Origin: Terriglobia bacterium
GTDB taxonomy: Bacteria; Acidobacteriota; Terriglobia; JAIQFV01
Direction: 5' to 3'
DNA length: 64,000 bases
Assembly: GCA_020072965.1 (NCBI GenBank)
Contig: JAIQFY010000009.1
Location: forward strand, 9,649-73,648
Shown piece by piece: positions 8,399 through 48,288 of the stretch. The notes under the pieces were generated by a model that was not told where the DNA came from, ran no database searches, and saw only the letters and a list, made by a program, of their open reading frames with translations. Each line of letters opens with the position of its first letter. Position 1 is the first letter of the stretch. A program made the position numbers and the translations under genes.

Positions 8399-9397
8399 TC
8401 ATTTTGGATTGCGAAGCTCATTCAGCGCCTGTTCGACATAGGGGCGAACCATTTGCTTGCGCCAGTACATGAGGAAATCGGTGTTGTCGAGGGGCTTGGC
8501 GACAGCATGCGCTGCGGCGGCTGCGGCGCGGATGGCGTTCTCATCCAAGGGGCGACCGATCAGGAGTTTCTGCGCCTCCGTGGCTTCCAACGGATGCGGG
8601 GCGATGGCGCCCAGGATGAGTTTCGCGTCCCGAACAGTCGCGTGATCATCTTCAAACCAAACACAGGCCGCGACACCGAGCACTGGGAAGTCAAACGCGC
8701 CCCGCCGCCTTAGTTTCGCATAGCTGGCGCGCCAACCATTGGCCGGAGGAAGCAGGATTTCGGTCAACAGTTCATCGTGCTGTTTCGTTAAATAATGAAT
8801 CCCATCGAACCGGGAATAGAGTTGGGCGATGGGAATGACTCGTTCTCTCCCGGGGGAGACTAGTTTGACCCGAACGCCCAGAGCGATCAGGACCGGAACC
8901 TCATCAGCCGATTGAACGGCCCAGCAGATTTTGGATCCTGGCGCCACCCAGCAGGTATCGCCGTCTTTCTTCAGGCAGAAATGGACTCCCTTGCGCCATT
9001 CGTAGTTCTGGTCATAGTAATTGCAGCGGGTATCCAGGAGCAAATTGCCCCCGAGCGTGCCCATGTTTTGCAGGATCGGCGTCGAGATGAGTCTCGCCGC
9101 CTGAGCGATAACCGGATAATATTTCTGAATAGTCCGATTCTCAATCAGTTCGGTCAGTGTCACGCCAGCTCCGACGCTCACGCCCGTGGTCGAAGCGGAA
9201 CCTGTGATTTTCTTTAATGCGGCAATCCGGTGTAAACCAATCACGACCTTGGGAGTCTGCTGGCGGCGCTTCATGTTGGGATACAGATCCGTCCCCCCCG
9301 CGACGAACTGTCCCTCGCGACCGGCCTCTGCCATGAGCTTCACGGCATCTGCAATTTTCCGCGGCGCATGATACTCAAATTTTGGAAGTCGCATCAT
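8399..9397 (-). CDS. xanthine-dehydrogenase-family FAD-binding medium subunit with HcrB-type [4Fe-4S] insertion (4-hydroxybenzoyl-CoA reductase beta-like)
   Basis: FAD-binding fold (FVAGGTDLYPNMK). Contains the insertion LLDTRC-NYYDQNYEWRKGVHF-C-LKKDGDT-C-WVAPGSKI-C (Cys125, 141, 149, 158). Its spacing C-x15-C-x7-C-x8-C equals that of the HcrB [4Fe-4S] ligands as I recall them (C122, 138, 146, 155). Confidence 0.8.
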   Translation of the reverse strand: MMRLPKFEYHAPRKIADAVKLMAEAGREGQFVAGGTDLYPNMKRRQQTPKVVIGLHRIAALKKITGSASTTGVSVGAGVTLTELIENRTIQKYYPVIAQAARLISTPILQNMGTLGGNLLLDTRCNYYDQNYEWRKGVHFCLKKDGDTCWVAPGSKICWAVQSADEVPVLIALGVRVKLVSPGRERVIPIAQLYSRFDGIHYLTKQHDELLTEILLPPANGWRASYAKLRRRGAFDFPVLGVAACVWFEDDHATVRDAKLILGAIAPHPLEATEAQKLLIGRPLDENAIRAAAAAAHAVAKPLDNTDFLMYWRKQMVRPYVEQALNELRNPK

Positions 9398-9412: not shown

Positions 9413-10393
9413 TTATCGCTTAAATGGCAAATGATCCAAATCCACGTTCCCGCCGGACAGAATAATTCCGATCCTCTTGTCCGCAAATCCCGCAGCCTTT
9501 TTGAAGATCGCCGCCGCGACCGCCACGGCGCCGGATGGTTCGACAATGATCTTCATCCGCTCCCAAATGTGACGCATGGCTTCGATGATCTCATCCTCGC
9601 TGACAGTGACGATGTCGTCGACCAGTTTCTGGATAATCGGAAACGTTTTATCTCCGAGGGACGACCGGAGGCCATCCGCAACGGTCTGCGGATGAGCCTG
9701 TAAAATGATTTTTCCGGCTTGCTTCGATTGAAACGCATCGTCAGCGCCCTTGGGTTCGCATCCAATGATCCAGGTTTCCGGAGAAAGACCTTTCATGGCC
9801 AGCGCGGTCCCGCTGATCAATCCCCCACCACCCACGGGGGCCAACAACAGGTCCAACCCTTCTTCAACCTGCTCAATGAACTCCAGGGCGCAGGTTCCCT
9901 GCCCGGCAATAACGCGGTAATTATTGTAAGGATGGATGAGGACGGCGCCGGTTCTGGCCACGAGTTCATCCGTCGTCGACTCCCGCGCCTCCAGGGTGGG
10001 CTTGCAAAAGGTGATCTCACCTCCATAGTTGCGGATCGCTCCCACCTTCGGCGCAGGCGCATTCGAAGGGACCACGATGTACGCTTTAATCCCCCGAATT
10101 CTGGCCGCCATGGAAAGCGCGGCTCCATGATTGCCGGAGGAGTGAGTGACGACTCCTTTCGCCGCGTCCGTTTCATCCAGTGAGAGGACCGCATTGATGG
10201 CCCCGCGCGCCTTGAAGGCGCCCCCCTTCTGCAGGTTTTCGCATTTGAAGAAGACCTGGGCGCCGGCCATCTCGTTCATCGTCCGGCTCGTCATGACGGG
10301 CGTGCGATGGATGTGTGGCCGTATCCTCTCGAGCGCCTCGCGAATCGTCTCCAGGCCAGGTTGGGTTTCAGCGTTTATGGTTGGAGTTGTCAT
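9413..10393 (-). CDS. PLP-dependent threonine/serine dehydratase or serine-racemase-like enzyme (fold type II)
   Basis: FKCENLQKGGAFKARGAINAV lysine motif. Gly-rich loops VGGGGLISG and SGGNV. Sits between the large and medium XDH-family subunits. Confidence 0.8.
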   Translation of the reverse strand: MTTPTINAETQPGLETIREALERIRPHIHRTPVMTSRTMNEMAGAQVFFKCENLQKGGAFKARGAINAVLSLDETDAAKGVVTHSSGNHGAALSMAARIRGIKAYIVVPSNAPAPKVGAIRNYGGEITFCKPTLEARESTTDELVARTGAVLIHPYNNYRVIAGQGTCALEFIEQVEEGLDLLLAPVGGGGLISGTALAMKGLSPETWIIGCEPKGADDAFQSKQAGKIILQAHPQTVADGLRSSLGDKTFPIIQKLVDDIVTVSEDEIIEAMRHIWERMKIIVEPSGAVAVAAAIFKKAAGFADKRIGIILSGGNVDLDHLPFKR

Positions 10394-10426
10394 ATGAATT
10401 CAATCACACTTTCTTTCTGTGTCTCC

Positions 10427-10625
10427 ATGGTTTGGTAGCCCCGGCGAGTATTCTTCTCGCCGGGGGATTCTCCAGTTTGGGTAGTCCCGGTCCGAGGCGG
10501 CGTCCGCCATTATTGCTGGCGGATCGCCGGGGGGGGGGCCAGCTTTGGTAGCCCCGGCGAGCCCGCCGCGGCGGGCCGGGGGATCTTCCCCGCGGCTCAC
10601 AGAAGCCCCGGTTTGCCATAGCGGG
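10427..10625. repeat. intercistronic cluster of GC-rich hairpins including a REP-like palindrome GAGCCCGCCGCGGCGGGC (family copy 2) and a TTTGGTAGCCCCGGCGAG direct repeat (3-4 copies)
   Basis: Hairpins read from sequence: CCCCGGCGAGtattcttCTCGCCGGGG (10436-10465) and CCGCCAttattgcTGGCGG (10504-10522). TTTGGTAGCCCCGGCGAG sits at 10430 and 10543, with variants at 10471 and 10603. The whole block lies between the large-subunit stop (10655) and the PLP gene start (10393). Confidence 0.5.
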
Positions 10626-10654
10626 ACAACGGGCTACTCGCTACCCAATCCTCC

Positions 10655-13339
10655 CTACTCCCGCGCGTGGACGGCTTCACGCAGAATTTCCTTTCCCGTC
10701 CCCCCGTCCCAGGGAGGCTTGACACGGACGGGTTCCGGCCAATCCACCTCAGGGACTGACTTTGGCCCGTAACGGTGAGGCTCTTCGACCCCCCGGGTAA
10801 TGCCTGTTCCCCCGCCGTTGGCCGATTCCCCCTCATCTTCTTGTTTTTCGTCCCGCTTCTGAATCGCGGACAGAACTTTGTCGGGCGTGATGGGGACCTC
10901 ATCGATGCGCACTTGGACCGCATCATAAACCGCGTTGGCAATAGCCGGTGGGACCGGCAGCAAGGGTCCCTGTCCGACTTCCTTGGCGCCAAACGGCCCG
11001 TTTGGATCCGGATCTTCAATCAAGAACGTCTTCACGTCGCACATTTCCAGGGTCGTGGGCGATTTGTATTCGAGGAGACTGGGAAATTTGTGCACGACAT
11101 TCCGATTAGTGCGGTAGCTCATTTCTTCCATGAGCGCTTCACCTAATCCCATGTATACCGAGCCCTCCACCTGTCCCAAGGTCAAGGCCGGGTTAATGGC
11201 GCGTCCAATATCGTGCGCAATCCAGATTCGCTCCACCCGCACAATCCCGGTGCGCGGGTCAACCTCAACTTCGGCGACCGCCGCATCGTAACTGTAAGCA
11301 GGAGAGGGACCGACTCCCGCTCCCTTGTATTTTCCTGCGGAGGGAGGCGGCGTATAACTGCCGACGGTCCCAATGGTCCCGAACCTCGCCTCGGCGATTT
11401 GCACCGCCTCGGCGAATGAGATGGACGTCTCGGGATTCTCCACGTCGAATAACCGGCCCCCTGAAAGGGAAAGACGAGTGGCGGGAATGTTCATTTTTTC
11501 CGAAACCGCGCGGATGAGCAGATCCCGGGCGCGCTCGGCTGCCTCCAGCGCCGCATTCCCGGTCATCAGCGTTACCCGGGAGGAATAACTTCCTAAATCC
11601 ACAGGTGTGAGATCGGTATCCGCCGTGAGAACTCGAATGTCGAAGGGATCAATCCCGAGCACCTCGGCAATAATGTAGGCCAAGACCGAATCGGAACCCT
11701 GTCCGATGTCGATCGATCCGCACATCACACACACGCCTCCCTGACGGTCCAGCCGGAGCTGCACCCCGGAATGCGGCATGTGGTTCCAATAAATGGGAAG
11801 CCCGGCGCCGCTCAGGTAGGAGGCACACGCCAGTCCTATGCCTTTTCCATAGGGGAGGTTTCGGAATTTGTTCTTGAAGTCGCTCGCCGTGACCACCTTG
11901 TCGATGCAGGCTGCCAGCCCCATCGAGCCAACCCTCAAGTAGTTTGAGGTGAGCGAATAGGGTTCCACCAGATGGTTCTTGCGTATTGCCACCGGATCGA
12001 GACGTAACTGTTCCGCGATTTTGTCGAGGTGAACCTCAAGGGCATAACGGGGCTGCGGGGTTCCGTGCCCTCGCTTGGGCCCGCAGGGCGGCTTGTTGGT
12101 GAACACACGGACGCCTTCAAACTTGTAATTCGGGATTTTGTAGGTCACCGTCTGCAACGCCCCGGTGTAATAAGTGGAAGCAACGCCATAACTGCCATAT
12201 GCCCCGCCATCGAGGAAGGAGCGGAAGTGCATCGCGGTAATGGCGCCATCTTTCTTCGCCCCCGTCTTCACCCACATGAGCACGGGATGTCGTCCCCGGT
12301 GGCAATAGAATACCTCTTCCCGCGTCAGGGTCACTTTCACGGGACGGCCCGTTAACAGGGCAAGTTTCGAGACAATCATTTCGTGGGGAAAAGGGTCACT
12401 CTTGCCGCCAAACCCGCCGCCATTGGGGGTCGCAATGACCCGGATACGGCTAGCCGGCATTTCCAGTACTTTCGCAAGTGCCCGGTGGACATAGTGCGGG
12501 GTCTGCGTGGAGCTCCATAAGCACAGCTTGCCGTCGCCATCGACCTGGGCCACGGCGGCGTGCTGCTCCATGGGAAGGTGCGTATTGCCTTCGTAAAAAA
12601 ATACATCCTCCCGAATCAGATCGGCCTGTTTGAATCCTTCTTCCACATCGCCAAACTCGAGGGCGACCATCTTGTGAACATTGCCGTGATCCCCATAGCC
12701 GTGAATGCGCCAGGCCTCTTTGTTCTCTCCGGCAAGCTGGGGGCCGCCGGTCCTTGAAGGATTATCGTCCATATGGGCGGAACCCGGACTTCTCAATGCA
12801 TCCTGTATCGAGGAAATGACCGGCAAGGGATCGTACTCCACTTCGATGGCATTCATCGCCTCAAATGCCGCGTCCTCATCGATGGCGGCCACGGCTGCCA
12901 CTGGATCACCGATCATGCGGACCTTGTCGAGGCACAGCGCGTGTTCGTCCTGGCTGACCGGTAAGATGCCATATGGAATCGGAAGAGACTTTCCCGTGAT
13001 CACCGCAACCACGCCGGGCATCGCTACGGCTTTGGACGTGTCAATTTTCCGAATGAGCGCATGGGGAACGTGACTGCGCAGGATCTTGCAGTAGAGCATA
13101 CGCGGCAACACGATGTCGTCGGCAAATTTCGTTTGCCCGGTTACTTTGGCCGAGGCATCCACCTTGCGAAACGGTTTGCCGACCACCTCGAGATGTTTTG
13201 AGCTTCCGTTTTTCATGAGATGAACCGGATAAGGTTTGGTAGCCGTGATCCGCCCGCTTTTTGGCGGATCACGGGTTCTTGTGACCTGCATACAAAAGCC
13301 CGCGATCTCCGCCACGGCGGACGGGATCACGGCTACCAA
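10655..13339 (-). CDS. xanthine-dehydrogenase-family molybdopterin-binding large subunit (HcrA/CoxL-like) with a ~85-aa low-complexity C-terminal tail
   Basis: 894 aa. N-terminal KHLEVVGKPFRKVDASAKVTGQTKFADD block and downstream a/b hammerhead and MoCo-binding blocks typical of CoxL/XdhB. The real start may be the internal MKNGSS. The tail DEKQEDEGESANGGGTG...PPWDGGTGKEILREAVHARE is atypical. Confidence 0.85.
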   Translation of the reverse strand: MVAVIPSAVAEIAGFCMQVTRTRDPPKSGRITATKPYPVHLMKNGSSKHLEVVGKPFRKVDASAKVTGQTKFADDIVLPRMLYCKILRSHVPHALIRKIDTSKAVAMPGVVAVITGKSLPIPYGILPVSQDEHALCLDKVRMIGDPVAAVAAIDEDAAFEAMNAIEVEYDPLPVISSIQDALRSPGSAHMDDNPSRTGGPQLAGENKEAWRIHGYGDHGNVHKMVALEFGDVEEGFKQADLIREDVFFYEGNTHLPMEQHAAVAQVDGDGKLCLWSSTQTPHYVHRALAKVLEMPASRIRVIATPNGGGFGGKSDPFPHEMIVSKLALLTGRPVKVTLTREEVFYCHRGRHPVLMWVKTGAKKDGAITAMHFRSFLDGGAYGSYGVASTYYTGALQTVTYKIPNYKFEGVRVFTNKPPCGPKRGHGTPQPRYALEVHLDKIAEQLRLDPVAIRKNHLVEPYSLTSNYLRVGSMGLAACIDKVVTASDFKNKFRNLPYGKGIGLACASYLSGAGLPIYWNHMPHSGVQLRLDRQGGVCVMCGSIDIGQGSDSVLAYIIAEVLGIDPFDIRVLTADTDLTPVDLGSYSSRVTLMTGNAALEAAERARDLLIRAVSEKMNIPATRLSLSGGRLFDVENPETSISFAEAVQIAEARFGTIGTVGSYTPPPSAGKYKGAGVGPSPAYSYDAAVAEVEVDPRTGIVRVERIWIAHDIGRAINPALTLGQVEGSVYMGLGEALMEEMSYRTNRNVVHKFPSLLEYKSPTTLEMCDVKTFLIEDPDPNGPFGAKEVGQGPLLPVPPAIANAVYDAVQVRIDEVPITPDKVLSAIQKRDEKQEDEGESANGGGTGITRGVEEPHRYGPKSVPEVDWPEPVRVKPPWDGGTGKEILREAVHARE

Positions 13340-13370: not shown

Positions 13371-13916
13371 CTATGATTTCAGCCCGTACACAACTTCCTC
13401 GGCGACCTCTGCCTTTTCCCCGCGCATGTGGGCCGCTGCCAACTCGACCGCTTCGTAAATCTTGATGTAGCCCGTGCAACGGCACAGGTTGCCTGACAGC
13501 GCCTGGGCAATCTCTTCACGGGTCGGTTTTGGATTCTTTGCAAGTAATTCCAAGGCGGTCAGCAAGAATCCGGGGGTGCAGTAGCCGCACTGGGCGGCGC
13601 CGAGATCAGCAAACGTTTCCTGGAGCGGGTGCAAGCGGCCCTCCGGCAATTGCATTCCTTCCACTGTCGTGACCTCGCGGCCCTCGGCATCAAGCCCCAG
13701 GACGAGGCATGAGAGCACCGGCTTGCCGTCCAGGAGCACCGCGCAGGTCCCACATTCGCCCAGTTCACAACCGTGCTTGGTTCCGGTGAGATTCAGATCT
13801 TCGCGCAAAACTTCCAGCAGGGTCTTATGAGGTGCAAACGCAACTTCACACGGCTCCCCGTTCAGGACGAAGGCAATATGCGCTTTTTGTTTCCGAATCT
13901 TCCTTCTCTGTTTCAT
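13371..13916 (-). CDS. (2Fe-2S)-binding small subunit of the xanthine-dehydrogenase-family enzyme (HcrC/CoxS-like)
   Basis: Plant-type cluster motif GTKHGCELGECGTCAV and a second cluster motif CGYCTPG...CRCTGY. Confidence 0.9.
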   Translation of the reverse strand: MKQRRKIRKQKAHIAFVLNGEPCEVAFAPHKTLLEVLREDLNLTGTKHGCELGECGTCAVLLDGKPVLSCLVLGLDAEGREVTTVEGMQLPEGRLHPLQETFADLGAAQCGYCTPGFLLTALELLAKNPKPTREEIAQALSGNLCRCTGYIKIYEAVELAAAHMRGEKAEVAEEVVYGLKS

Positions 13917-13955: not shown

Positions 13956-15371
13956 TCATAACCGAACATACTCGAATTCGAAGGGCTTGCCGCCGACGCC
14001 GCTCTTAGGGGGAGCAATCCAATTGGCAATCTTCCCCGGGTCGGTGACGGGTTTCATCAACTCGCGCACGTAAGCGCGGTCCTCTTGACCGGGCAGCCAG
14101 TGGGGGGCCTTCGCCTCATACTCTTCTTCCGAGATCAAGTTGCCCCCAAGATCGAAGTTATGGTTGGCGAATTCACCCTGATGGCGATGAAAACGGGTGG
14201 AGGGAAGGACCAACCTTGCGGAGATGCCTTCTTCCTCCAGCGCCTTGTTCCATCTTGCCAGACCGCGTTCGCAGTCTTTGACATATTCGCCACGCAGCAC
14301 TTCGTTCAACGCATTCCGGAGCGGAACCTCTTTCGTGGCAAGCTTTCCGTTCTCGATCACGGTCAGCGAATAGGTGGCGTCGCTGATCACGTGGTCCTCA
14401 TATTTCTTCTGTTCGAGATAGCGTCCTTTCAAGCCGGCCGAAAAGAAGTCCGCTGCGTTGGAAGAGATTTCTCCGCCGAAGAGGTCAAGTGAGTAGCTGT
14501 ACCAGAAATTGATGTAGCGCTGGATGATGGAGAGGGGGATGCCGTTGAGCGCCCTCACCTCGTCGTCGCCCTGATTCTTCGTCTGCTTCATCAGCTCCGC
14601 CGTCCGCTTCACAATGCGCTCCAGGCCTGACTCGCCCACAAACATGTGGTGCGCTTCTTCGGTCAGCATGAACTGGCAGGTGCGGGCCAGTGGCTCAAAA
14701 CCCGACTCCGCCAGGGACGCGAGCTGATACTTTCCGTCGCGGTCCGTGAACATGGTAAACGCGTAGAAGTTCAGCCAGTCATCACACGGCTGGTTGAAGG
14801 CGCCCAGGATCCGTGGCTTGTCGGTGTTGCCACTCCGGCGCTGGAGCAATTCTTCCGCTTCTTCACGGCCGTCGCGTCCGAAGTATTTTTGGAGGATGTA
14901 CACCATCGCCCACAAGTGTCGCCCCTCCTCAACATTCACCTGGAACAGGTTCCGCAAATCGTACATTGAAGGGCATGTGACACCCAGACGTCGTTGCTGC
15001 TCGACGGAGGCCGGCTCAGTATCGCCTTGGGTTACGACAATGCGCCGCAGCGCGTTGCGAAACTCCCCGGGGACTTCCTGGTACGCCGGATGGCCGCAAC
15101 CGTCTCCAAACCCGATGGTGGCGTTCGTCTTCGAAGGATTCAGGAAGATCCCCCAGCGATATTCCGGCATCTTGACATAACCGAAATGCGCCCAGCCTTC
15201 GGGTTCCACAGACACAGCGGTTCGAAGATAAACATCGTATCCCTGAAACCCCTCCGGCCCCATCTCGTTCCACCAGGACAGGAAATTCGGAAGCCATTTT
15301 TCCAGCGCGCGCTGAAGCTGGGGATCGTTGCTGAGATCGACATTGTTGGGAATTTTGTCAAATACGCTCAT
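13956..15371 (-). CDS. boxB: benzoyl-CoA 2,3-epoxidase (oxygenase) component B, diiron enzyme
   Basis: 471 aa. N-terminus MSVFDKIPNNVDLSNDPQLQRALEKWLPNFLSWWNEMGPEGFQGYDVYLRTAVSVEPEGWAHFGYVKM closely matches BoxB as I remember it. Two E-x-x-H diiron motifs: VEEGRHLW and TEEAHHMF. Confidence 0.85.
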   Translation of the reverse strand: MSVFDKIPNNVDLSNDPQLQRALEKWLPNFLSWWNEMGPEGFQGYDVYLRTAVSVEPEGWAHFGYVKMPEYRWGIFLNPSKTNATIGFGDGCGHPAYQEVPGEFRNALRRIVVTQGDTEPASVEQQRRLGVTCPSMYDLRNLFQVNVEEGRHLWAMVYILQKYFGRDGREEAEELLQRRSGNTDKPRILGAFNQPCDDWLNFYAFTMFTDRDGKYQLASLAESGFEPLARTCQFMLTEEAHHMFVGESGLERIVKRTAELMKQTKNQGDDEVRALNGIPLSIIQRYINFWYSYSLDLFGGEISSNAADFFSAGLKGRYLEQKKYEDHVISDATYSLTVIENGKLATKEVPLRNALNEVLRGEYVKDCERGLARWNKALEEEGISARLVLPSTRFHRHQGEFANHNFDLGGNLISEEEYEAKAPHWLPGQEDRAYVRELMKPVTDPGKIANWIAPPKSGVGGKPFEFEYVRL

Positions 15372-15561: not shown

Positions 15562-17259
15562 TCATGTTCTTCGAAAATCGAATTTCGCTTTTGTCGGTTT
15601 CCCGTAATTCGTCAGCCCTCCATGTTCGCCAACGGCGTTGGGCCGCTGGAAGATCCAATTCTGCCACGCGGTGAGACGTCCATAGATCTTGGTCTCGGTG
15701 GTTTCCGGGCCGGCAAATCGCAACGAGGCTTCCATGCCGGTCAGGGCGTCGGGCGACAGCGAAGTGCGCTCTTCGATAGCAACGCGAATCTCATCGTCCC
15801 AGTCCAGGCCGTCGGGTGCCAGAGTCACGAGTCCACCTTCGAGCGCGGCGTCGGCAGAGAACCGAGCGGGAGGCTTCAACGCAGCCTCGATCCGGGCGTT
15901 ATCGTTGAGGAAACGGGATTCCAGGCGCGAAAGGCCATTCGACATGGGCAGCGCGCCGGCGTTCATCGAAGTAGTAGCGATTTTAATCGCTTGATCCGGG
16001 TCGTTTCGCATGTAGGTTCGATCCGAAGCGAGGGCAAGTTCCAACAGATTCCCCGCGAAGCAACTCCCCTCTTCAATTAAAGCAAAGAAACTCTTCGCGG
16101 TATGATCCATCCGGCGCAGGACGCGGCCCATGTGGAGAATTATCTCCCGCACCAATCCATGGTCCCGGTGGGATGAGAGCATTTCATCGATCCGATGGAT
16201 GGCGTCAATTTCGCCGTGAGTGCGGACAATCACCAGGCCGATTTCCGGCTCGTTGAAGCGCAAGTGTAGCAGCGCATCATCCAGCTCACGATAAGCCGCC
16301 AGGGCCCAGAACCGGTCTCCCCATTCCTGGATCCGCACGGCGGAATCGGGCTGGGGATCAGCGGGAGCACGCAGCGTCAGATTGGCGATCCGCGCCTTCC
16401 GGTTGAGCTGAAGGGAAACGTATCTGTATTCCCGGCCGCTCTCAGTAATCTGAACCTCAAGGGGATGCAGCTTGATTCCCTTGGGGGGCGTCGATCGAGA
16501 GGGCTCGTCGCTGGGACTGGATTGAATTTCAGCCAGTAGATGATCGATCCGGGAGGTCACCGCTTGGTCAAATTTGCTAGTCGGGAACGTGTCATCTATC
16601 AGGCCCCACTCTTTCGCACGCTTTCCTTTGATCCCTTCCGCGAGGGTGCAGAAAACATCAGCGCGGTCCCGGCGCACCTTGCGCTTATCCACCAGCCGGG
16701 TCAATCCTCCGGTCCCCGGCAGGACCCCCAGCAGAGGCACTTCCGGAAGCGAAACCGCCGAGCTGCCGTCGTCCACCAGGTAAATTGCGTCACACGCCAG
16801 CGCCAGCTCATATCCCCCACCCGCGCACGTCCCGTTGAGCGCGGCGACAAAACGGATGCCCGAAAACCGGGAGGCCTCTTCCATGGCGCAACGGGTCTCG
16901 TTGGTGAACTTGCAGAAATTGACCTTGAAGGGATGGGAAGAACTTCCGAGCATGTAGATATTGGCGCCGGCGCAAAACATGCGCGGCTTCAGGCTCTTCA
17001 CGACCACGACGCGCACCTCGGGGTGTTCGAAGCGGATGCGGTTAAGGGCATCGGCCAGCTCGATGTCGACGCCGAGGTCATAGGAATTCAATTTCAGCTT
17101 GTACCCCTCGCGCAGGGGCGAATCTTCCTGAACATCCAGTCCCAGCGTGGCGACTTCACCTTCCACGACCAAATTCCAGTGCCGGTACTGTCCCGGAGTA
17201 GCTTGAAACTCCACCGGCCGCTCGGCCGTCTGGGGTGGCGGGGTCACTGGAATCGGCAT
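15562..17259 (-). CDS. boxC: 2,3-epoxybenzoyl-CoA dihydrolase (benzoyl-CoA-dihydrodiol lyase), crotonase superfamily
   Basis: 565 aa. YRHWNLVVEGEVATLGLDVQEDSPLREGYKLKLNSYDLGVDIELADALNRIRFEHPEVRVVVV matches the BoxC N-terminal block. Two crotonase-like halves. Confidence 0.85.
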   Translation of the reverse strand: MPIPVTPPPQTAERPVEFQATPGQYRHWNLVVEGEVATLGLDVQEDSPLREGYKLKLNSYDLGVDIELADALNRIRFEHPEVRVVVVKSLKPRMFCAGANIYMLGSSSHPFKVNFCKFTNETRCAMEEASRFSGIRFVAALNGTCAGGGYELALACDAIYLVDDGSSAVSLPEVPLLGVLPGTGGLTRLVDKRKVRRDRADVFCTLAEGIKGKRAKEWGLIDDTFPTSKFDQAVTSRIDHLLAEIQSSPSDEPSRSTPPKGIKLHPLEVQITESGREYRYVSLQLNRKARIANLTLRAPADPQPDSAVRIQEWGDRFWALAAYRELDDALLHLRFNEPEIGLVIVRTHGEIDAIHRIDEMLSSHRDHGLVREIILHMGRVLRRMDHTAKSFFALIEEGSCFAGNLLELALASDRTYMRNDPDQAIKIATTSMNAGALPMSNGLSRLESRFLNDNARIEAALKPPARFSADAALEGGLVTLAPDGLDWDDEIRVAIEERTSLSPDALTGMEASLRFAGPETTETKIYGRLTAWQNWIFQRPNAVGEHGGLTNYGKPTKAKFDFRRT

Positions 17260-17541: not shown

Positions 17542-18342
17542 TTGGTCAACATGTCGAACCAAAGAGACTTCCTGTCAGCCATCGGAGAGCGCGTCCGTAA
17601 ATTGCGTCGCGCGCGCGGGTGGACCCAATCGCAACTGGCGGAGCGAGCCCAGCTTTCTCCCCGTTTTCTGGCCCAACTTGAGGCGGGAGATGGAAACATC
17701 TCCGTACTCCGTTTGGCGCAAGTGGCCGAGGCGTTGCACCAACCCTTGCGCGACCTGATCCCAAGTGTCTCCCTGACCGAAAGAAAGCCGGGCGGTCAAG
17801 TTCGTGGCCGCAAGCAGATCATCGCTTTGATTGGTCTCCGCGGAGCCGGAAAGACCAGTGTGGGCATTCAGTTGGCCGGACGACTCAAGCTGCCCTTCGT
17901 TGAATTGGACTCCCTCATTGAGAAAGCTGCGCTGATGCCACTGGCCCAGATCTTTTCTCTTCATGGAGAAGGCTACTATCGCCGGCTGGAGTATCAAACA
18001 TTGAAAGAGCTATTGCGGAATCCCAAGCCGATCGTACTCGCGACCGGGGGATCGCTCGTGACGGATCCGCGCACGTGGAGCCTCGTCAAGCAATCCTGCA
18101 CCTCGGTCTGGTTGAAGGCCACTCCCGAAGTTTATTGGAACCGCCTTCTCAAGCAAGGTGACACGCGGCCGATGAAGAACAACCCCTCCGCTATGACTGA
18201 GCTTCGTGCTCTGCTGGCGGCCAGGGAACCCCTCTACGGGCAGGCCGATCACATCATCGATACTTCGCGCCTCTCACTTGGTGAGGCTACGGAAGGCGCG
18301 CTTCACGCCCTTGGGATGGATGCGCTCAGTAAGGATGGATAG
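17542..18342 (+). CDS. boxR: BoxR/BzdR-family transcriptional regulator (N-terminal XRE HTH fused to shikimate-kinase-like effector domain)
   Basis: HTH block RKLRRARGWTQSQLAERAQLSPRFLAQLEAG. P-loop GLRGAGKTSVG and a shikimate-kinase fold. Divergent from boxCB. Confidence 0.8.
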   Translation: MVNMSNQRDFLSAIGERVRKLRRARGWTQSQLAERAQLSPRFLAQLEAGDGNISVLRLAQVAEALHQPLRDLIPSVSLTERKPGGQVRGRKQIIALIGLRGAGKTSVGIQLAGRLKLPFVELDSLIEKAALMPLAQIFSLHGEGYYRRLEYQTLKELLRNPKPIVLATGGSLVTDPRTWSLVKQSCTSVWLKATPEVYWNRLLKQGDTRPMKNNPSAMTELRALLAAREPLYGQADHIIDTSRLSLGEATEGALHALGMDALSKDG

Positions 18343-18907: not shown

Positions 18908-19259
18908 GTCGAATGTCGGTGCCTGACCCGAATGGCGCTTAGACCCGAATGGCGCTTAGTTAAGAAATTGAGATGGAGATTGATCCGCTTCCCTGAAGGG
19001 GAAGTCTTCAATAGCCCAGGGTTGGCCGCCTTGCGGCCTACCCTGGGTGGGGATCGCCCGAAGAGAAGAAGGAACCCTGAAGGGGTTCCTTCCCCACGAG
19101 GATCTGGGTTCGATCCAGCCAAAATATGATCAAAGACTCCTCCGGCCCCCCCTGCGCGGTGACTGGGACTGTCATAAACCTGTTCTCTGGGATGGGGCTA
19201 GATCCGTTTTACCATTCTCTTAACTTAGCGCCATTCGGAGTCAGGCGCCGACATTCGAT
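18908..19259. mobile_element. MITE-like ~350-bp element with ~35-bp terminal inverted repeats and a highly structured interior
   Basis: Left end GTCGAATGTCGGTGCCTGACCCGAATGGCGCTTAG, followed by a duplicated ACCCGAATGGCGCTTAG. Right end CTAAGCGCCATTCGGAGTCAGGCGCCGACATTCGAT, its reverse complement. Interior hairpins: CTTCCCtgaaGGGGAAG, CCCAGGGT...ACCCTGGG, GGAACCCtgaaGGGGTTCC. Solo copies of the terminal-repeat core lie at 18826-18848 and 19949-19971. Confidence 0.45.
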
Positions 19260-19717
19260 TTTCCTGATGCAGCGTTCAATATTTCTTGAAGCTCCTCGAC
19301 GAGGGGATGGCGGGTAAACCCGTGAAAAAACCGAAAAGGCGGCATGAACACCACTTTCGTTCCGAACTCGGTGGGCCGTCGGAATCGGAGCCACATGAGC
19401 TCCGGGTTTACCAATAGACTCCCCGAGACCCGCTCAACGTCGCGGAGCGGCACCTCGATCTCGGTCTCGAAGTTGGAGATCAATAAAACGTCCCCACGAA
19501 GGCGAACTCGTTTGAGCCGCATGCAGGACCAGTAGAATAAAACGGTGCCGAAAACGGTCACGGCCAGGAAGACCCATCCAAGTTCTCGAAAATCTCTTAC
19601 TCCCCAGGAATTGGGCGCGATTATCATACTTAGCGAGATGGCGGCAAAACCACCGATCCATAGCGCTGGGAGTGCGAACTTGTAAAACCAAGTCCATTTA
19701 GACGAAAGGTCTCGCAT
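19241..19717 (-). CDS. hypothetical membrane protein
   Basis: 158-aa ORF with two or three hydrophobic helices (FYKFALPALWIGGFAAISLSMII and WVFLAVTVFGTVLFYW). Its 3' end overlaps the right end of the MITE-like element, so coding status is uncertain. Confidence 0.4.
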   Translation of the reverse strand: MRDLSSKWTWFYKFALPALWIGGFAAISLSMIIAPNSWGVRDFRELGWVFLAVTVFGTVLFYWSCMRLKRVRLRGDVLLISNFETEIEVPLRDVERVSGSLLVNPELMWLRFRRPTEFGTKVVFMPPFRFFHGFTRHPLVEELQEILNAASGKSNVGA

Positions 19718-20096: not shown

Positions 20097-20324
20097 TCAC
20101 TCTTCCGGCCAGATCTGTTCCCCCGTTTCGGCATCAATAATCGTGATGGCATCGGTAGGACAGGACCGGGCAGCTTCGATGATGGTGTCGTCGTCATTGC
20201 CCTCCGGATTCGTGACGATCGCCTTCGACCGCTCGTCCAGGGCAAAGGTTTCCGGCGCGGTTTCAATGCAATTGCCGGCCGCAATGCACTTGGGGCGATT
20301 GATGATGATGTTTAGCTGGGTCAT
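20097..20324 (-). CDS. small single-cluster ferredoxin
   Basis: 75 aa with the cysteine pattern CIAAGNC...CP typical of [3Fe-4S]/[4Fe-4S] ferredoxins of the P450-partner type. Confidence 0.75.
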   Translation of the reverse strand: MTQLNIIINRPKCIAAGNCIETAPETFALDERSKAIVTNPEGNDDDTIIEAARSCPTDAITIIDAETGEQIWPEE

Positions 20325-20422: not shown

Positions 20423-22273
20423 TTACTCTGCGGCGAGCGCACGATCCACCACCGGGAGGGCGGGAGGACGCGGAAACAAAACGACCTTCCATTTTCGAAG
20501 AGAATCCACCAGGACAATGACTAGCGCGGTCATCATGATCGCGGTCAGGATGGCATCCAGCCAGCCCTGGAAGGCGGTGGCCGGATCCCGAGTAAGCGGA
20601 ATGAAGTTGCCGGTGATCGACAGCCATCCGGCGGTCATTGTCGTGGTGGCCACAAACGCCAGCGGCAGGAGGGTGACCCAAGCATACTTCGCGCGCTTGG
20701 AATTAATGATCACGGTCGTCCCGACGCACAGGGCAATCGATGCCAGCAATTGATTCGAAATCCCAAACATGGGCCAGATCGTGGAAATGGACCCGGTCAA
20801 AATAAAATAGGCCCAGGAAAAAACGATTACCGTTGTGGCGAGAATACTTCCCGGGATCCAGTCCGTTCGGCCCATCGGTTTCCATGCCTTGCCCAGCAGT
20901 TCCTGAAGGATGAATCGTCCCACGCGCGTGCCGGCATCGATCGTCGTCAGGATGAACAGGGCCTCAAACACAATGGCAAAGTGATACCAATAGGACATCA
21001 GATTTCGCAATCCGGGGATCGCGGTGAAGATCTGTGCCATGCCCACGGCGAGCGACACCGCCCCGCCCGTTCGGCCGGCAACTTTTTCTCCCACTTCGGC
21101 CTCCAGAAGGGGCAGGTTCTTCGGAACCAACTGGTCGGCAATGTCCGGGTTGGCCGCCCGAACCGCCGCCATCTTCTGCACCGGGACGTTGATGGTGTAA
21201 TAGTCTCCCGGGTACATGGAATTTGCTGCGACCAGGCACACGATCCCGACGATTCCCTCCACCAGCATGGCCCCGTATCCTATGGGACGGATGTGCGATT
21301 CCTTGGAAATCATTTTGGGCGTCGTGCCCGAACCAATCAAGGCATGAAAGCCAGAGATGGCCCCGCAGGCGATCGTGATAAAGACGAACGGGTACACCTT
21401 ACCGGGGATGATCGGACCTCCCCCATGGATAAATTTGGTGAGCGCCGCCATTTTCAAATCGGGATGAGCGATCATCACCCCCAGGATGAGCGCCACGACC
21501 ACTCCAATCTTCATGTACGAGCTAAGATAGTCGCGCGGGGAAAGCAACAGCCAGACCGGCAGCACGGAGGCGATAAAGCCATAGGCCGCCAATAACAGGG
21601 TGATCTGAGGCTGATTAAAAGAGAAGTAGCGTTCCAGCGCTGAGCCCGGGATCCATCGTCCCACAATCAAAGCGGCGAGTGTGAGCGTGACGCCGAAGAG
21701 GGTGGCCGGCACAACCCGCGGTTTCTTCCCCCGAAACATCCACAGGCCCATAACAATGGCGATCGGGATCGTCATGGCAATTGTGAATGTACCCCAGGAG
21801 CTTTCCCGAAGCGCATTGACGACCGCAAGTCCGACGCCTGCCATGGCAATCACCACTATCATCAGAATGGCAATTGCCGCCGTGTAACCCGAAAGGGAGG
21901 AAATCTCACCGCGCGCAATCTCCGCCAAGGACTTGCCGTCGCGGCGAACCGAGGCATACAGGATAATGATGTCGTGCACGGCGCCGCCCAGCACCACCCC
22001 GAACACCAGCCACAGCAACCCGGGAAGGTACCCGAATTGCGCCGCAAGCACCGGGCCGATCAGCGGACCCGGCCCGGCAATGGCGGCAAAGTGATGTCCG
22101 AACAGAACCCATTTGGGGGTGGGGAAATAGTTCTGTCCATCGTAGAATCGGAATGCCGGCGTCTGGCGCAAATCATCCAGCACCGCCACTTTCGTCACTA
22201 TAAACAAGGAGTAATACCGGTAGCCAATGGCGATCACGGCAAGGGCGCCAAGAATAATGGGCAGCGCATTCAT
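20423..22273 (-). CDS. cstA: carbon starvation protein A (CstA-family peptide/pyruvate transporter)
   Basis: 616 aa, polytopic. N-terminal block [66 protein letters not shown] is diagnostic of CstA. Confidence 0.9.
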
Positions 22274-36854: not shown

Positions 36855-38336
36855 TTGAATGGTCAGATGCCCATAACCCTTTCTCCTGCAATAAAAAAGA
36901 AGACCTCGACGCAATCCGCTGGAACAGCGGCCACTCTGCTGCGGAGGATTCCCTCAATCGACCAGTTGCTGCTGACCGCGGAGCTCCAGCGAAGCTTAAG
37001 CAGCTTCCCTCATGAGGCGGTTGTGGACGAGTTGCGTCACGCGGTTCAAACCCTTCGAAACCAGACCCTGACCGGACGTCTGTCAGACCCCGTCTTCACG
37101 CAAGCCCTGGCGGAGATCCCCGACAAGGTCCACACCATTTTGGGACGCCGCTTTGCGCCCTCTCTCGGAAAAGTGATCAATGCGACCGGCGTGGTGTTGC
37201 ACACGAATCTTGGTCGCGCGCCGCTTTCGCGTGCAATCCTGGAGCGCATCCGCGAAGTGGCCGCCGGGTACTCCAACCTGGAATTCGATTTAGCGAAAAA
37301 TACACGGGGAAATCGTGACGTTCACGCGGAGCGCCTGTTAACATCGCTGCTCCGTTGCCAGGCCGCGCTGGTGGTAAACAACTGCGCCGCCGCAGTTCTG
37401 TTGACGCTCAATTCACTGGCGGAGGGTGGCGAGGTCCTTGTCTCCCGGGGAGAGCTTGTGGAAATCGGGGGATCGTTTCGAATCCCTGAAATCATGGCGA
37501 AAAGCGGTGCCGTGTTACGCGAGGTGGGAACCACCAATCGCACCCGGGTCAGCGATTATGCCCGGGCCATCAACGCTCAAACAAGACTCATCCTTAGGGT
37601 CCATCGGAGTAACTTCAAGATGGTCGGCTTTTCGGAACAGCCGTCGCTGGAGGAATTGGTCCGGCTGGCACACCGCAAGCACCTGCCCCTGGTTGAGGAC
37701 CTCGGCTCCGGGTGCGTTGTCGATTTGAGCCCGACCGGAATCACCGGCGAACCTACCGTCGCTGCCAGCCTGAAGGCGGGCGTCGATGTCATCACCTTCA
37801 GCGGCGATAAGCTGCTCGGCGGACCCCAGGCGGGCATCCTGTTGGGCCGCAAGAAAATCCTGGCGCAGCTTCGGACGAATCCCCTTTACCGGGCCTTTCG
37901 CGTCGACAAGCTGACGGTGGCAGCCCTTGAGGCCACAATCCTTTCCTACCTCCGACATGAAGAGCGCACACAAGTCCCGGCACTTAAGATGATCTTCGAA
38001 ACACGCGACCAAATTGAATCTCGGGCAAAGCGGCTGGTTCAGCGCGTGGACGAGGAAACAAAGCCGGGTGGTATGCTCTTGCTCCAGCTTATTCCTGGAA
38101 ATTCCGTGATCGGCGGAGGGTCCACGCCGGGGCAGGAAATCTCCACCATGCTGATATCCATCGGTTCTACCCGAGATTCCGCCCGGGCGATTGAAGCCCG
38201 CCTGAGGGGTTCTCCCATTCCCATTCTGGCAAGGGTGGAAGGGAACCGCGTGCTTGTCGATTTGAGAACCGTGGATGTAAGCGAGGAGGAAGAGATCGTT
38301 CGCGCCCTGGTGAGCCTGGGGAAGCCGGTGGTATAA
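36855..38336 (+). CDS. selA: L-seryl-tRNA(Sec) selenium transferase
   Basis: GKVINATGVVLHTNLGRAPLS block. PLP-lysine context FSGDKLLGGPQAGILLGRK. Confidence 0.85.
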   Translation: MNGQMPITLSPAIKKKTSTQSAGTAATLLRRIPSIDQLLLTAELQRSLSSFPHEAVVDELRHAVQTLRNQTLTGRLSDPVFTQALAEIPDKVHTILGRRFAPSLGKVINATGVVLHTNLGRAPLSRAILERIREVAAGYSNLEFDLAKNTRGNRDVHAERLLTSLLRCQAALVVNNCAAAVLLTLNSLAEGGEVLVSRGELVEIGGSFRIPEIMAKSGAVLREVGTTNRTRVSDYARAINAQTRLILRVHRSNFKMVGFSEQPSLEELVRLAHRKHLPLVEDLGSGCVVDLSPTGITGEPTVAASLKAGVDVITFSGDKLLGGPQAGILLGRKKILAQLRTNPLYRAFRVDKLTVAALEATILSYLRHEERTQVPALKMIFETRDQIESRAKRLVQRVDEETKPGGMLLLQLIPGNSVIGGGSTPGQEISTMLISIGSTRDSARAIEARLRGSPIPILARVEGNRVLVDLRTVDVSEEEEIVRALVSLGKPVV

Positions 38337-47260: not shown

Positions 47261-47454
47261 ATCCCATTCTAATCACGAACCCGGATTCGCGAAATTCTTT
47301 TTTTATATGTTTGGGCTATGGAAGAGCTATTTCAGTCCACAGATTACGCCGATCACACCGAGTAAAATCAAGATTTAAAGCAGTCGTTGTTTTTGATATC
47401 CTCACGATTCATCGAAGACGAGATATTTCAAAGACCGGGGACATCAAGGGCAGA

Positions 47455-48288
47455 ATGGCCATTTCAGTCAGCGGCATTTTTCATCATCCGGTGAAATCTG
47501 CCAAGAGCAAGCCGCTAAACCGTGCAGAGATTGGTGTGCGCGGAATTTTGCACGACCGCGAATGGATGGTGGTCGATGAGCGGGGAATGTTCGTGGCGCA
47601 GCGCCAATCTTCGGAGGCTGGTGTCGAAGTCCGGACCATGTGTTTGGTGGACGCCGCCCTCCAGGACAGGCGCCTGGTCCTCACAGCCCCCGGCCTGAGC
47701 TCAATCTCGGTTCCCCTCAGTGGCCCCGATACCCCGGAAGAAGAGGTGCGGGTCTGGGAGCATCAAGCCCGCGGCATCGATCAAGGCGAAGAGGTCTCCC
47801 GTTGGTTGAGTGAACTGCTCGGAAGGGAGAGACCCGGGAAATATCGCCTCATACGAATGTCAAACCATCACGTTCGCCGCGCCAAACAGGGAGATTCACA
47901 GCTGGCCTTCGCCGATGGCTATCCGTTCCTCATTATCTCTCAGGCTTCGCTGGATGATCTGAACAGCCGCCTTTCAGAAGCCCTTCCTATGAACAGGTTT
48001 CGCCCCAACCTCGTTCTTGACGGGTGCGCGCCGTACCAGGAGGATCAAATGGCCTTGATCCGGATCGGCCGAGTCCTTCTCGAGGGCCAGGGGCTATGCG
48101 CACGCTGTCCAACCACGGCCACCAATCAGGAAACCGCCGAGCGCGGCAAGGAGCCGCTCCGCACCCTGGCGACCTACCGCCGGCACCCCAGCGGCGAAGA
48201 CGGTGTCGTGTTCGGGCGTAATTTCAATCATTTGAATCTCGGGACGATCGCGATGGGGGATACCGTTGAAATTCTAGCTGCTGACTGA
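47455..48288 (+). CDS. MOSC-domain protein (YcbX-like: MOSC_N beta-barrel plus MOSC)
   Basis: Start chosen at MAISVSGIFHHPVKS; the ORF track starts at 47311. MOSC block with conserved Cys: LEGQGLCARCPTTATNQETAERGKEPLRTL. Confidence 0.7.
   Translation: MAISVSGIFHHPVKSAKSKPLNRAEIGVRGILHDREWMVVDERGMFVAQRQSSEAGVEVRTMCLVDAALQDRRLVLTAPGLSSISVPLSGPDTPEEEVRVWEHQARGIDQGEEVSRWLSELLGRERPGKYRLIRMSNHHVRRAKQGDSQLAFADGYPFLIISQASLDDLNSRLSEALPMNRFRPNLVLDGCAPYQEDQMALIRIGRVLLEGQGLCARCPTTATNQETAERGKEPLRTLATYRRHPSGEDGVVFGRNFNHLNLGTIAMGDTVEILAAD

Follow-up and report, generated by a model that had tools for sequence, protein, structure and literature searches.

Relation to described systems

The 4-hydroxybenzoyl-CoA reductase of Thauera aromatica (4-HBCR; hcrCAB; structure 1rm6), the Box clusters (boxABC(D) with the regulator BoxR) and the serine racemases (SR) are the described systems closest to a locus of a soil acidobacterium of the Terriglobia in which a gene for an enzyme that depends on pyridoxal 5'-phosphate (PLP), hereafter the PLP gene, separates the large from the medium subunit gene of a molybdenum (Mo) enzyme of the xanthine dehydrogenase (XDH) family. 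The locus was analyzed within a stretch of 64,000 nucleotides (contig JAIQFY010000009.1, positions 9,649 to 73,648), here called the window, whose coordinates are used unless another locus is named. Besides 4-HBCR, only one other reductive dehydroxylase of its family has been demonstrated so far (PMC12771579).

The Mo enzyme genes of the window share with hcrCAB the gamma-alpha-beta (small-large-medium) order and the four-cysteine loop of the beta subunit, and the alpha subunit of 1rm6 is by far the closest solved relative of the large subunit. Unlike in hcrCAB, however, the PLP gene lies between alpha and beta, alpha carries Gln where 4-HBCR keeps the catalytic Glu, and the trio is linked to aerobic boxCB genes in the window, while in Blastocatellia it lies in a housekeeping neighborhood. 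With the Box clusters the window has in common boxB and boxC, both above their equivalog cut-offs, and a divergent BzdR/BoxR-type regulator; in contrast to those clusters, the Mo enzyme trio and the PLP gene come after boxB, and the open reading frames (ORFs) scanned in the 64-kb window (all of at least 200 amino acids and selected smaller ones) yielded neither boxA nor boxD nor a gene for a benzoate-CoA ligase. The PLP protein shares with serine racemases (human 3l6b, Dictyostelium 6lut, maize 5cvc, S. pombe 1v71) a single fold-type-II domain of about 320 amino acids, the G(A/S)FKxRG lysine, the HSSGNHG loop, the tetraglycine loop, the E-x3-A-x-D motif, the arginine equivalent to R135 and the serine at the pyridine nitrogen (SGGN). 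It differs from these racemases in its bacterial origin and in its place inside a catabolic operon, and it may racemize its substrate or only carry out elimination.

The explanation that we favor, with a probability of roughly 0.55, is that the PLP gene is an anciently captured, co-transcribed gene for a functionally autonomous enzyme of the serine-racemase/dehydratase type, and that it came under BoxR-type control only through its landing site. The features on which this explanation draws are as follows.

8399..9397, (-) strand: medium flavin adenine dinucleotide (FAD) subunit gene; FAD_binding_5 and CO_deh_flav_C domains, 4-HBCR-type [4Fe-4S] loop
9413..10393, (-) strand: PLP gene, serine-racemase / beta-hydroxy-amino-acid ammonia-lyase family; ATG start, 326 amino acids, PALP domain end to end
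10394..10654, (-) strand: spacer from the large subunit stop to the PLP start; 261 nt, three hairpin units resembling repetitive extragenic palindromes (REP-like)
10655..13216, (-) strand: large molybdopterin subunit gene; Ald_Xan_dh_C, MoCoBD_1 and MoCoBD_2 domains, 4-HBCR-alpha clade
13371..13916, (-) strand: small 2x[2Fe-2S] subunit gene; Fer2 and Fer2_2 domains
13956..15371, (-) strand: boxB (benzoyl-CoA 2,3-epoxidase subunit B); TIGR03225, 748.8 bits, cut-off 499
15562..17259, (-) strand: boxC (2,3-epoxybenzoyl-CoA dihydrolase); TIGR03222, 787.5 bits, cut-off 712
17542..18342, (+) strand: divergent BzdR/BoxR-type regulator gene; PRK08154, 290 bits, cut-off 204; Pfam HTH_3 and SKI (shikimate-kinase-like)

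Conservation and age of the PLP gene in Terriglobia

On the (-) strand the operon reads boxC-boxB-small-large-PLP-medium and diverges from the regulator gene; the ORF of the large subunit extends over 10655..13339, with a likely ATG start at 13216. The preliminary description, made from the sequence alone, had recognized that the PLP gene interrupts the small-large-medium order known from 4-HBCR, and this is borne out. An exact-sequence search with the PLP protein of the window gave no contig, and the comparison was made with relatives. All recovered related Terriglobia operon loci, representing about ten lineages, have the PLP gene immediately before the medium subunit gene; on contigs that reach further upstream, small-large and boxB/boxC precede the PLP gene. 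Relative to the window, the PLP proteins are 85–86% identical in L001/L002/L007, 86% in L006 and 84% in L174 (both partial loci), 74% in L008, 73% in L005 and L166, 72% in L173, 70% in L003/L004/L009 and 69% in L168. Since the downstream flank differs in L166 (sigma-54 activator, thiamine pyrophosphate enzyme, TonB receptor), the conserved core is not merely a matter of synteny across the whole region; an aldehyde dehydrogenase downstream in this locus was considered and is not BoxD. In the protein database the Terriglobia clade comprises 12 PLP clusters (69–100% identity) and 13 medium-subunit clusters (75–100%), and a clear identity gap separates the PLP and medium clusters alike from their next relatives. 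The PLP protein of the window is 100% identical to P0001, a protein of an Acidobacteriia/Terriglobia metagenome-assembled genome.

The distance from the PLP stop codon to the medium subunit start is 15 nt in the window and 3–176 nt in relatives. The coding strand contains no terminator-like site, and a promoter and terminator scan gave nothing above shuffled sequences. The common strand, the short gaps, the lack of a terminator and the conserved order suggest that the PLP gene is co-transcribed with the Mo enzyme genes.

The composition of the PLP gene (GC content 0.575, GC at third codon positions (GC3) 0.685, synonymous codon usage correlated at r = 0.87 with that of the remaining 27 genes of the window) is within the range of those 27 genes in every respect. 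In the comparison of the window with L001, beyond whose depth synonymous divergence (dS) is saturated, the ratio of nonsynonymous to synonymous divergence (dN/dS) is 0.118 for the PLP gene, 0.101 for the medium subunit gene, 0.102 for boxC, 0.071 for the large subunit gene and 0.058 for boxB.

Because its composition is native and its position is conserved across the Terriglobia lineages, we regard the PLP gene as an old, fixed and native member of the operon and as neither recent nor foreign. The preliminary description had allowed for an incidental insertion, to be recognized by a gene that orthologous operons never contain and that GC content and codon usage mark as foreign; we found the opposite, as all recovered Terriglobia operons carry the gene and its GC, GC3 and codons are native. 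The suspicion of an insertion is thus correct only with regard to the ancestral subunit order, into which the gene has indeed been inserted, and not with regard to a recent date. This answers the question that the first inspection of the locus had raised.

Identity and active site of the PLP protein

The PLP protein matches Pfam PALP (PF00291) with residues 24–314 against profile positions 1–295 of 295 (E 9.3e-86, 288 bits, cut-off 35), and PALP is the sole Pfam domain found in it. The best curated NCBIfam models are those of the beta-hydroxyaspartate dehydratase BhcB (NF045641; 458 bits, cut-off 550) and threo-3-hydroxy-L-aspartate ammonia-lyase (NF005454; 385 bits, cut-off 452). The matches span the models from end to end (residues 12–324, profile positions 2–312 of 312), yet both scores lie below the equivalog cut-offs; no other ORF scanned in the window matches an enzyme family of the beta-hydroxyaspartate cycle. 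Among solved structures, serine racemases come closest (Dictyostelium 6lut, 355 bits; maize 5cvc, 345; human 3l6b, 297), with alignments that cover almost the entire protein. The threonine deaminase 1ve5 of Thermus and an aspartate racemase come next, and all of the nearest structures are fold-type-II.

Alignment with human SR locates the functional residues. The Schiff-base lysine K61, in the (A/S)FKxRG motif and within FKCENLQKGGAFKARG (residues 49–64), corresponds to K56; the loop H84-S85-S86-G87-N88-H89-G90 corresponds to H82–G88, with S85/S86 equivalent to S83/S84, and carries the serine base on the second face; R137 corresponds to R135, the arginine that contacts the substrate side-chain; the GGGG phosphate loop (188–191) corresponds to the tetraglycine loop; the metal site E-x3-A-x-D (E213/A217/D219) corresponds to E210/A214/D216; and S313 corresponds to S313. 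All of these residues are invariant across an alignment of 15 homologues (A2). Relative to 190 outgroup homologues, the PLP proteins of the operon clade are consistently distinct at only six positions (G57, P115, I120, T141, K224 and F297), none of them catalytic; no active-site change separating the operon clade from stand-alone homologues and no clade-specific cysteine were found in this comparison. There is no sign of an altered reaction. At the first of them, human SR has T52 where the PLP protein has G57; we take T52 to lie near the ATP site.

Two other identities were considered and rejected. The biosynthetic threonine deaminase IlvA has about 420–515 amino acids, as opposed to 326, and a C-terminal ACT-like regulatory domain that the PLP protein lacks, and IlvA models match only the catalytic part (residues 29–324), with scores far under their cut-offs. 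A NifS-type molybdenum cofactor (Moco) sulfurase or cysteine desulfurase would be a fold-type-I protein of aminotransferase class V with a persulfide cysteine, whereas the PLP protein is fold-type-II.

As the functional residues are all present and invariant and the IlvA regulatory domain is missing, we judge the protein to be a competent enzyme of the serine-racemase / 3-hydroxyaspartate-dehydratase family, complete in its catalytic and metal residues. The first description of a complete fold-type-II PLP enzyme of the serine/threonine-dehydratase or serine-racemase type therefore stands, with PALP covering the protein end to end and the residues intact. The substrate actually used can only be suggested from family membership. 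Taken by itself, the PLP gene is nothing out of the ordinary within its large enzyme family, and its identification changes little.

Orthologous operons in Blastocatellia and the L167 lineage

We examined the best 80 of at least 559 genome loci matched by the medium subunit. The 76 loci L010–L085, from Blastocatellia/Pyrinomonadaceae, encode clear orthologues of the trio, with small subunits about 80%, large subunits 71–76% and medium subunits 63–67% identical to those of the window. Neither a PLP gene nor box genes were found within 10 kb of any of the 76 trio loci. In these genomes the trio is part of a conserved series of housekeeping genes in the order folK-panB-panC-small-large-medium, followed by genes for a MobA/MocA-like nucleotidyltransferase and a thioredoxin-like protein, a short conserved ORF of no assigned family and then gatA (names read from representative sequences and not from family-library runs). 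The comparison of orthologues that the preliminary description had called for thus gives a divided answer: the PLP gene is present in all recovered Terriglobia operons, but in 0 of 76 Blastocatellia operons.

Aromatic-catabolism genes are absent near the Blastocatellia trio, which is odd for a supposed 4-hydroxybenzoyl-CoA reductase.

A second line of evidence comes from one Terriglobia lineage, known from three independent assemblies (L167, L171 and L172), in which the PLP gene is found without the operon at its locus. Its position there is described relative to two further genes of the window.

20097..20324, (-) strand: single-cluster ferredoxin gene, 75 amino acids; Fer4_13/15/19
20423..22273, (-) strand: cstA; CstA, E 1e-209

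In this lineage a PLP orthologue of 70% identity follows 110 bp after cstA (L167 8041..10993), and the ferredoxin, boxR, boxC, boxB, small and large genes are missing between the two. The L167 region is otherwise syntenic with 20–32 kb of the window (Na/H exchanger, aldo-keto reductase, tricorn protease, enoyl-CoA hydratase, cstA). All three assemblies end 115–240 bp behind the PLP gene, and this stretch contains no medium subunit start. The PLP gene of L167 differs from that of the window by a nonsynonymous divergence (dN) of 0.207; dS is saturated, so that the dN/dS of 0.057 is only indicative. No homology to the window was detectable in the spacers of the L167 cstA-PLP junction, and the end points of a deletion cannot be mapped. 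Because the lineage is nested within the operon clade (it was sister to all others in only 2 of 300 bootstraps), we consider its arrangement derived: the box and Mo genes were apparently lost or moved from the locus, and the PLP gene was kept intact.

The assembly break that the three genomes share 115–240 bp after the PLP gene suggests a repeat at this place.

Origin of the PLP gene

Homologues of the PLP protein at 52–65% identity are very numerous and come from many phyla. As a control set, 80 metagenomic loci were taken from the matches listed in a scan with alignment A2, all 52–62% identical and thus containing no close relatives; flanks were searched up to 9 kb on each side, less on short contigs. 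XDH-family or box genes were found near 0 of these 80 loci. In 295 of 300 bootstrap replicates the operon-embedded PLP genes form a single clade, and its sister group is acidobacterial (P0053, P0034, P0030 and P0016), its members, where examined, standing alone among unrelated housekeeping genes. One clade in 295/300 bootstraps with stand-alone acidobacterial sisters suggests that a resident acidobacterial PLP gene was captured a single time, in the ancestor of this Terriglobia lineage. A literature search for a link of serine-racemase-like genes to 4-HBCR or box clusters found nothing relevant.

The large-medium junction as an insertion site

The Terriglobia PLP gene sits at exactly the junction of the large and medium subunit genes, and in related acidobacteria, the Blastocatellia, insertions are concentrated at this junction, which forms a hot spot. 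Among the junction loci (L010–L085, with the medium-subunit match at position 10001 where flanks are full), the large-medium gap is longer than 300 bp in 37 of 46, or 80%, with a median of 654 bp and a maximum of 2.1 kb; at the other six junctions of the Blastocatellia operon, gaps of this size occur in 0–23% of loci. The cargo of these gaps is always on the operon strand and includes toxin-antitoxin pairs (DUF6883 + DUF4926, HicA/HicB), a Uma2 nuclease and a ParA-like ATPase, as well as an Exo_endo_phos nuclease, HNH-like proteins and a cyclase-like protein. In 7 of 51 insert loci the final ~45 nt of the large gene recur as a decaying second copy, which together with the native spacer directly precedes the medium gene, so that the insert is bracketed by direct repeats; a further copy of the large-gene 3' end lies elsewhere in the locus in L053 and possibly in L085. 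The junction acts as a cargo slot: toxin-antitoxin and nuclease genes have entered it on many occasions, a metabolic gene on a single one. Such capture of genes within a multi-subunit enzyme's operon is unusual.

The Blastocatellia junction resembles a site of site-specific cassette capture, without a recombinase gene in cis.

The 76 Blastocatellia operons without the gene, its persistence in the L167 lineage and the hot spot at the large-medium junction lead us to doubt an obligate role; the Mo enzyme probably does not need the PLP gene.

Proposed course of events

In the explanation favored here, a copy of a normally stand-alone acidobacterial gene would have been captured once, in the ancestor of a Terriglobia lineage, and would have landed at the large-medium junction of a BoxR-controlled boxC-boxB-(4-HBCR-like Mo enzyme) operon. 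Vertical inheritance under purifying selection would have followed, and the gene would be read through with the operon, because the medium gene starts 3–176 nt behind it. The enzyme would bind its substrate as an external aldimine at the Schiff-base K61, with S86 on the opposite face and a Mg2+/Ca2+ site formed by E213, A217 and D219, and would racemize or beta-eliminate small beta-hydroxy amino acids (serine, threonine, 3-hydroxyaspartate), in the latter case to a 2-oxo acid and ammonium. It would work alone, being neither a subunit nor a required partner of the Mo enzyme, as an amino-acid deaminase or racemase co-expressed with aromatic-acyl-CoA catabolism.

Several observations weigh against this explanation. 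The PLP gene is kept before the medium gene in every Terriglobia operon locus that shows it, in some ten lineages, as a functional link would likewise predict, and a spacing to the medium gene of 3–15 nt in several lineages couples its expression to that of the Mo enzyme. Box and Mo genes may exist elsewhere in the L167-lineage genomes, and the three assemblies all break after the PLP gene, so that a loss of the Mo enzyme is unproven. Both equivalog models for the PLP protein remain under their cut-offs, and the assignment of a substrate is a prediction. Finally, no convincing duplicate of the large-gene 3' end was found after the PLP gene in the Terriglobia loci, where the best local matches are of 16–20 nt; a missing duplicate would fit an old event, but a mechanism of insertion in common with the Blastocatellia cassettes is not demonstrated.

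Alternative explanations

The alternative that survives best, and that we hold as tentative, is that the PLP enzyme is a working member of the operon's pathway. It could (a) deaminate a beta-hydroxy amino acid, possibly an aromatic, phenylserine-like one, whose carbon skeleton would enter benzoyl-CoA catabolism, or (b) produce pyruvate or oxaloacetate, from which a 2-oxoacid:ferredoxin oxidoreductase and ferredoxin would draw low-potential electrons for the [4Fe-4S] Mo enzyme or BoxB. Consistent with such a role, the position of the gene is kept without exception in the roughly ten Terriglobia lineages, L166 with its different flank included, purifying selection on it is comparable to that on its neighbors, and the operon lacks boxA and boxD, its electron supply being unexplained. 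The ferredoxin gene and cstA, moreover, adjoin the cluster, and in L167 the PLP gene lies beside cstA. CstA-family proteins include pyruvate transporters. However, the Blastocatellia orthologues of the Mo enzyme manage without the PLP gene; its 52–65% identical homologues, where examined, stand alone with no XDH or box genes nearby; no active-site residue sets the operon clade apart; a 2-oxoacid:ferredoxin oxidoreductase was sought without success among the scanned ORFs of the window; pyruvate is already supplied by central metabolism; and the L167 lineage retains the PLP gene without the operon at that locus. The functional guesses of the preliminary description, namely a supply of 2-oxoacids or reducing equivalents or an amino-substituted aromatic substrate, accordingly received no support, for the negative search for the oxidoreductase, the unchanged active site and the Blastocatellia orthologues without a PLP gene all speak against them.

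A more specific form of this idea, which we think improbable, makes the PLP enzyme a dedicated fourth component of an undescribed variant of the benzoyl-CoA epoxide pathway without BoxA and BoxD, in which it would supply or remove a nitrogen-containing or 2-oxo-acid co-substrate that the system requires. In such a variant, BoxB and BoxC would act together with the Glu-to-Gln 4-HBCR-like molybdoenzyme and the small ferredoxin.

We consider it very unlikely that the PLP enzyme is a maturation factor that provides sulfur for the sulfido ligand of the Mo enzyme, in the manner of NifS-type desulfurases with XdhC. Accessory genes are frequent inside XDH-family operons, and the Terriglobia operon shows neither xdhC nor mocA, while in Blastocatellia a MobA/MocA-like gene (named by sequence) directly follows the medium gene. 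Although Moco sulfuration does require a PLP enzyme, the known Moco sulfurases are fold-type-I proteins of the NifS family that carry the persulfide on a catalytic cysteine (PMC2997495). The PLP protein is instead of the fold-type-II serine-racemase type and has no clade-specific cysteine, the Blastocatellia orthologues mature without it, and the L167 lineage retains it without Mo genes at that locus.

That the gene is a recent incidental insertion, a passenger of REP-like repeats not yet purged, can hardly be maintained: although it interrupts the canonical small-large-medium order, adjoins a repeat-rich 261-nt spacer and occupies a junction whose Blastocatellia equivalent takes up foreign cassettes, it holds the same position down to 69% protein identity with dS saturated, is native in composition and codon usage, has a dN/dS of 0.12, belongs to a monophyletic clade with acidobacterial sister groups, and in most lineages carrying it lacks the repeat spacer.

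The repeat-rich spacer upstream of the PLP gene

The spacer at 10394..10654 had been described as a REP-rich stretch of 260 bp that follows the PLP gene and hints at insertion. The stretch is real, with 261 nt and three units, but in the sense of transcription it comes before the PLP gene, and only 15 nt lie between the PLP stop codon and the medium gene. Each unit is a hairpin, CCCCGGCGAG-N7-CTCGCCGGGG, followed by CTACCAAA. Two units are exact 18-mers (chance expectation 0.06); this 18-mer occurs twice in the window, only in the spacer. The spacer folds more strongly than shuffled sequences (z = -3.4). It matches no riboswitch or other RNA family of Rfam, and three matches to microRNA families elsewhere in the scanned range are far under their gathering cut-offs.

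A homologous spacer with one unit fewer, that is, two as against three, is present in L001/L007, and the gap between the large and PLP genes is free of repeats in L003 (39 nt), L005 (27 nt), L008 (9 nt), L166 (36 nt) and L168 (90 nt). In L008 a REP-like unit (…GCCGGGGCTACCAAA) occurs twice in another intergenic region, downstream of the medium subunit gene (8477..8491 and 9216..9230 of that locus); the counterpart of these units in the window is 10431..10581. Because the array is found only in the sublineage of the window and L001/L007 and the unit recurs elsewhere in L008, we interpret it as a later, lineage-specific addition and not as the scar of a PLP insertion. The hint of insertion attributed to the spacer is thereby withdrawn, as the large-to-PLP gap outside this sublineage measures 9–90 bp.

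The REP-like hairpin appears to be a low-copy dispersed repeat of these Terriglobia that expands and contracts, with three units in the window and two in L001/L007.

The 4-HBCR-like Mo enzyme

That the PLP gene is flanked by a real XDH-family trio closest to 4-HBCR, as was first supposed, is confirmed by the Pfam domains and the matches to 1rm6. The large subunit matches 1rm6_A with 580 bits, the next structure reaching 264 bits. The best structural match of the medium subunit is 4-HBCR beta (1rm6_B), and C125, C141, C149 and C158 all align with the cysteines of its [4Fe-4S] loop; the four-cysteine loop is invariant in the orthologues aligned. Relative to the NCBIfam 4-HBCR equivalogs, however, all three subunits score below the cut-offs: alpha (TIGR03194) with 808 bits against 995, beta with 252 against 405 and gamma with 168 against 258. 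By these scores the trio is closest to 4-hydroxybenzoyl-CoA reductase without being a clean member, and the label of aroyl-CoA reduction is a plausible one.

At the position of the catalytic Glu of the xanthine oxidase family, the large subunit has a Gln (codon 10970..10972, (-) strand, 'GAKEVGQGPLLP', 'GAKEVGQGP'). Glu is found at this position in 4-HBCR (1rm6_A), CoxL (CO dehydrogenase), 7dqx (6-hydroxypseudooxynicotine dehydrogenase) and Qor (quinoline oxidoreductase). The Gln is invariant in 77 acidobacterial large-subunit orthologues, including those of Blastocatellia; in the wider family, sampled by 136 cluster representatives, Glu occurs in 121 and Gln in only 7, most of these 7 being the nearest clusters. 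The chemistry of the Gln-variant enzyme may differ both from that of the hydroxylases and from that of 4-HBCR. Acidobacteria possess a widespread 4-HBCR-like molybdoenzyme in which the catalytic Glu is changed to Gln and which in Terriglobia is linked to boxBC, with boxA and boxD not found.

The large subunit also has a tail (10655..10850, (-) strand) of about 65 amino acids by which it outreaches both the 4-HBCR alpha model and 1rm6_A ('...PEVDWPEPVRVKPPWDGGTGKE...'). This tail is a conserved feature of the subfamily, the tblastn alignments of most orthologues, those of Blastocatellia as well, reaching within one codon of the stop.

Neighboring genes

The 75-residue ferredoxin (20097..20324) is the only electron carrier near boxB, and the donor for BoxB in these Terriglobia is unexplained. 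Between boxR and the ferredoxin gene there is a 158-amino-acid ORF of no assigned family (19241..19717), and the non-coding stretch between this ORF and the ferredoxin and cstA genes contains a match to the Acido-Lenti-1 RNA motif (RF01687; 19850..19894, (+) strand; 38.2 bits, gathering cut-off 37, E 8e-6). Elsewhere in the window are a gene for a selenocysteine synthase (SelA; 36855..38336, (+) strand) and one for a protein with MOSC_N and MOSC domains (47311..48288, (+) strand); MOSC domains are akin to the sulfur-carrier domain of eukaryotic Moco sulfurases (PMC2997495).

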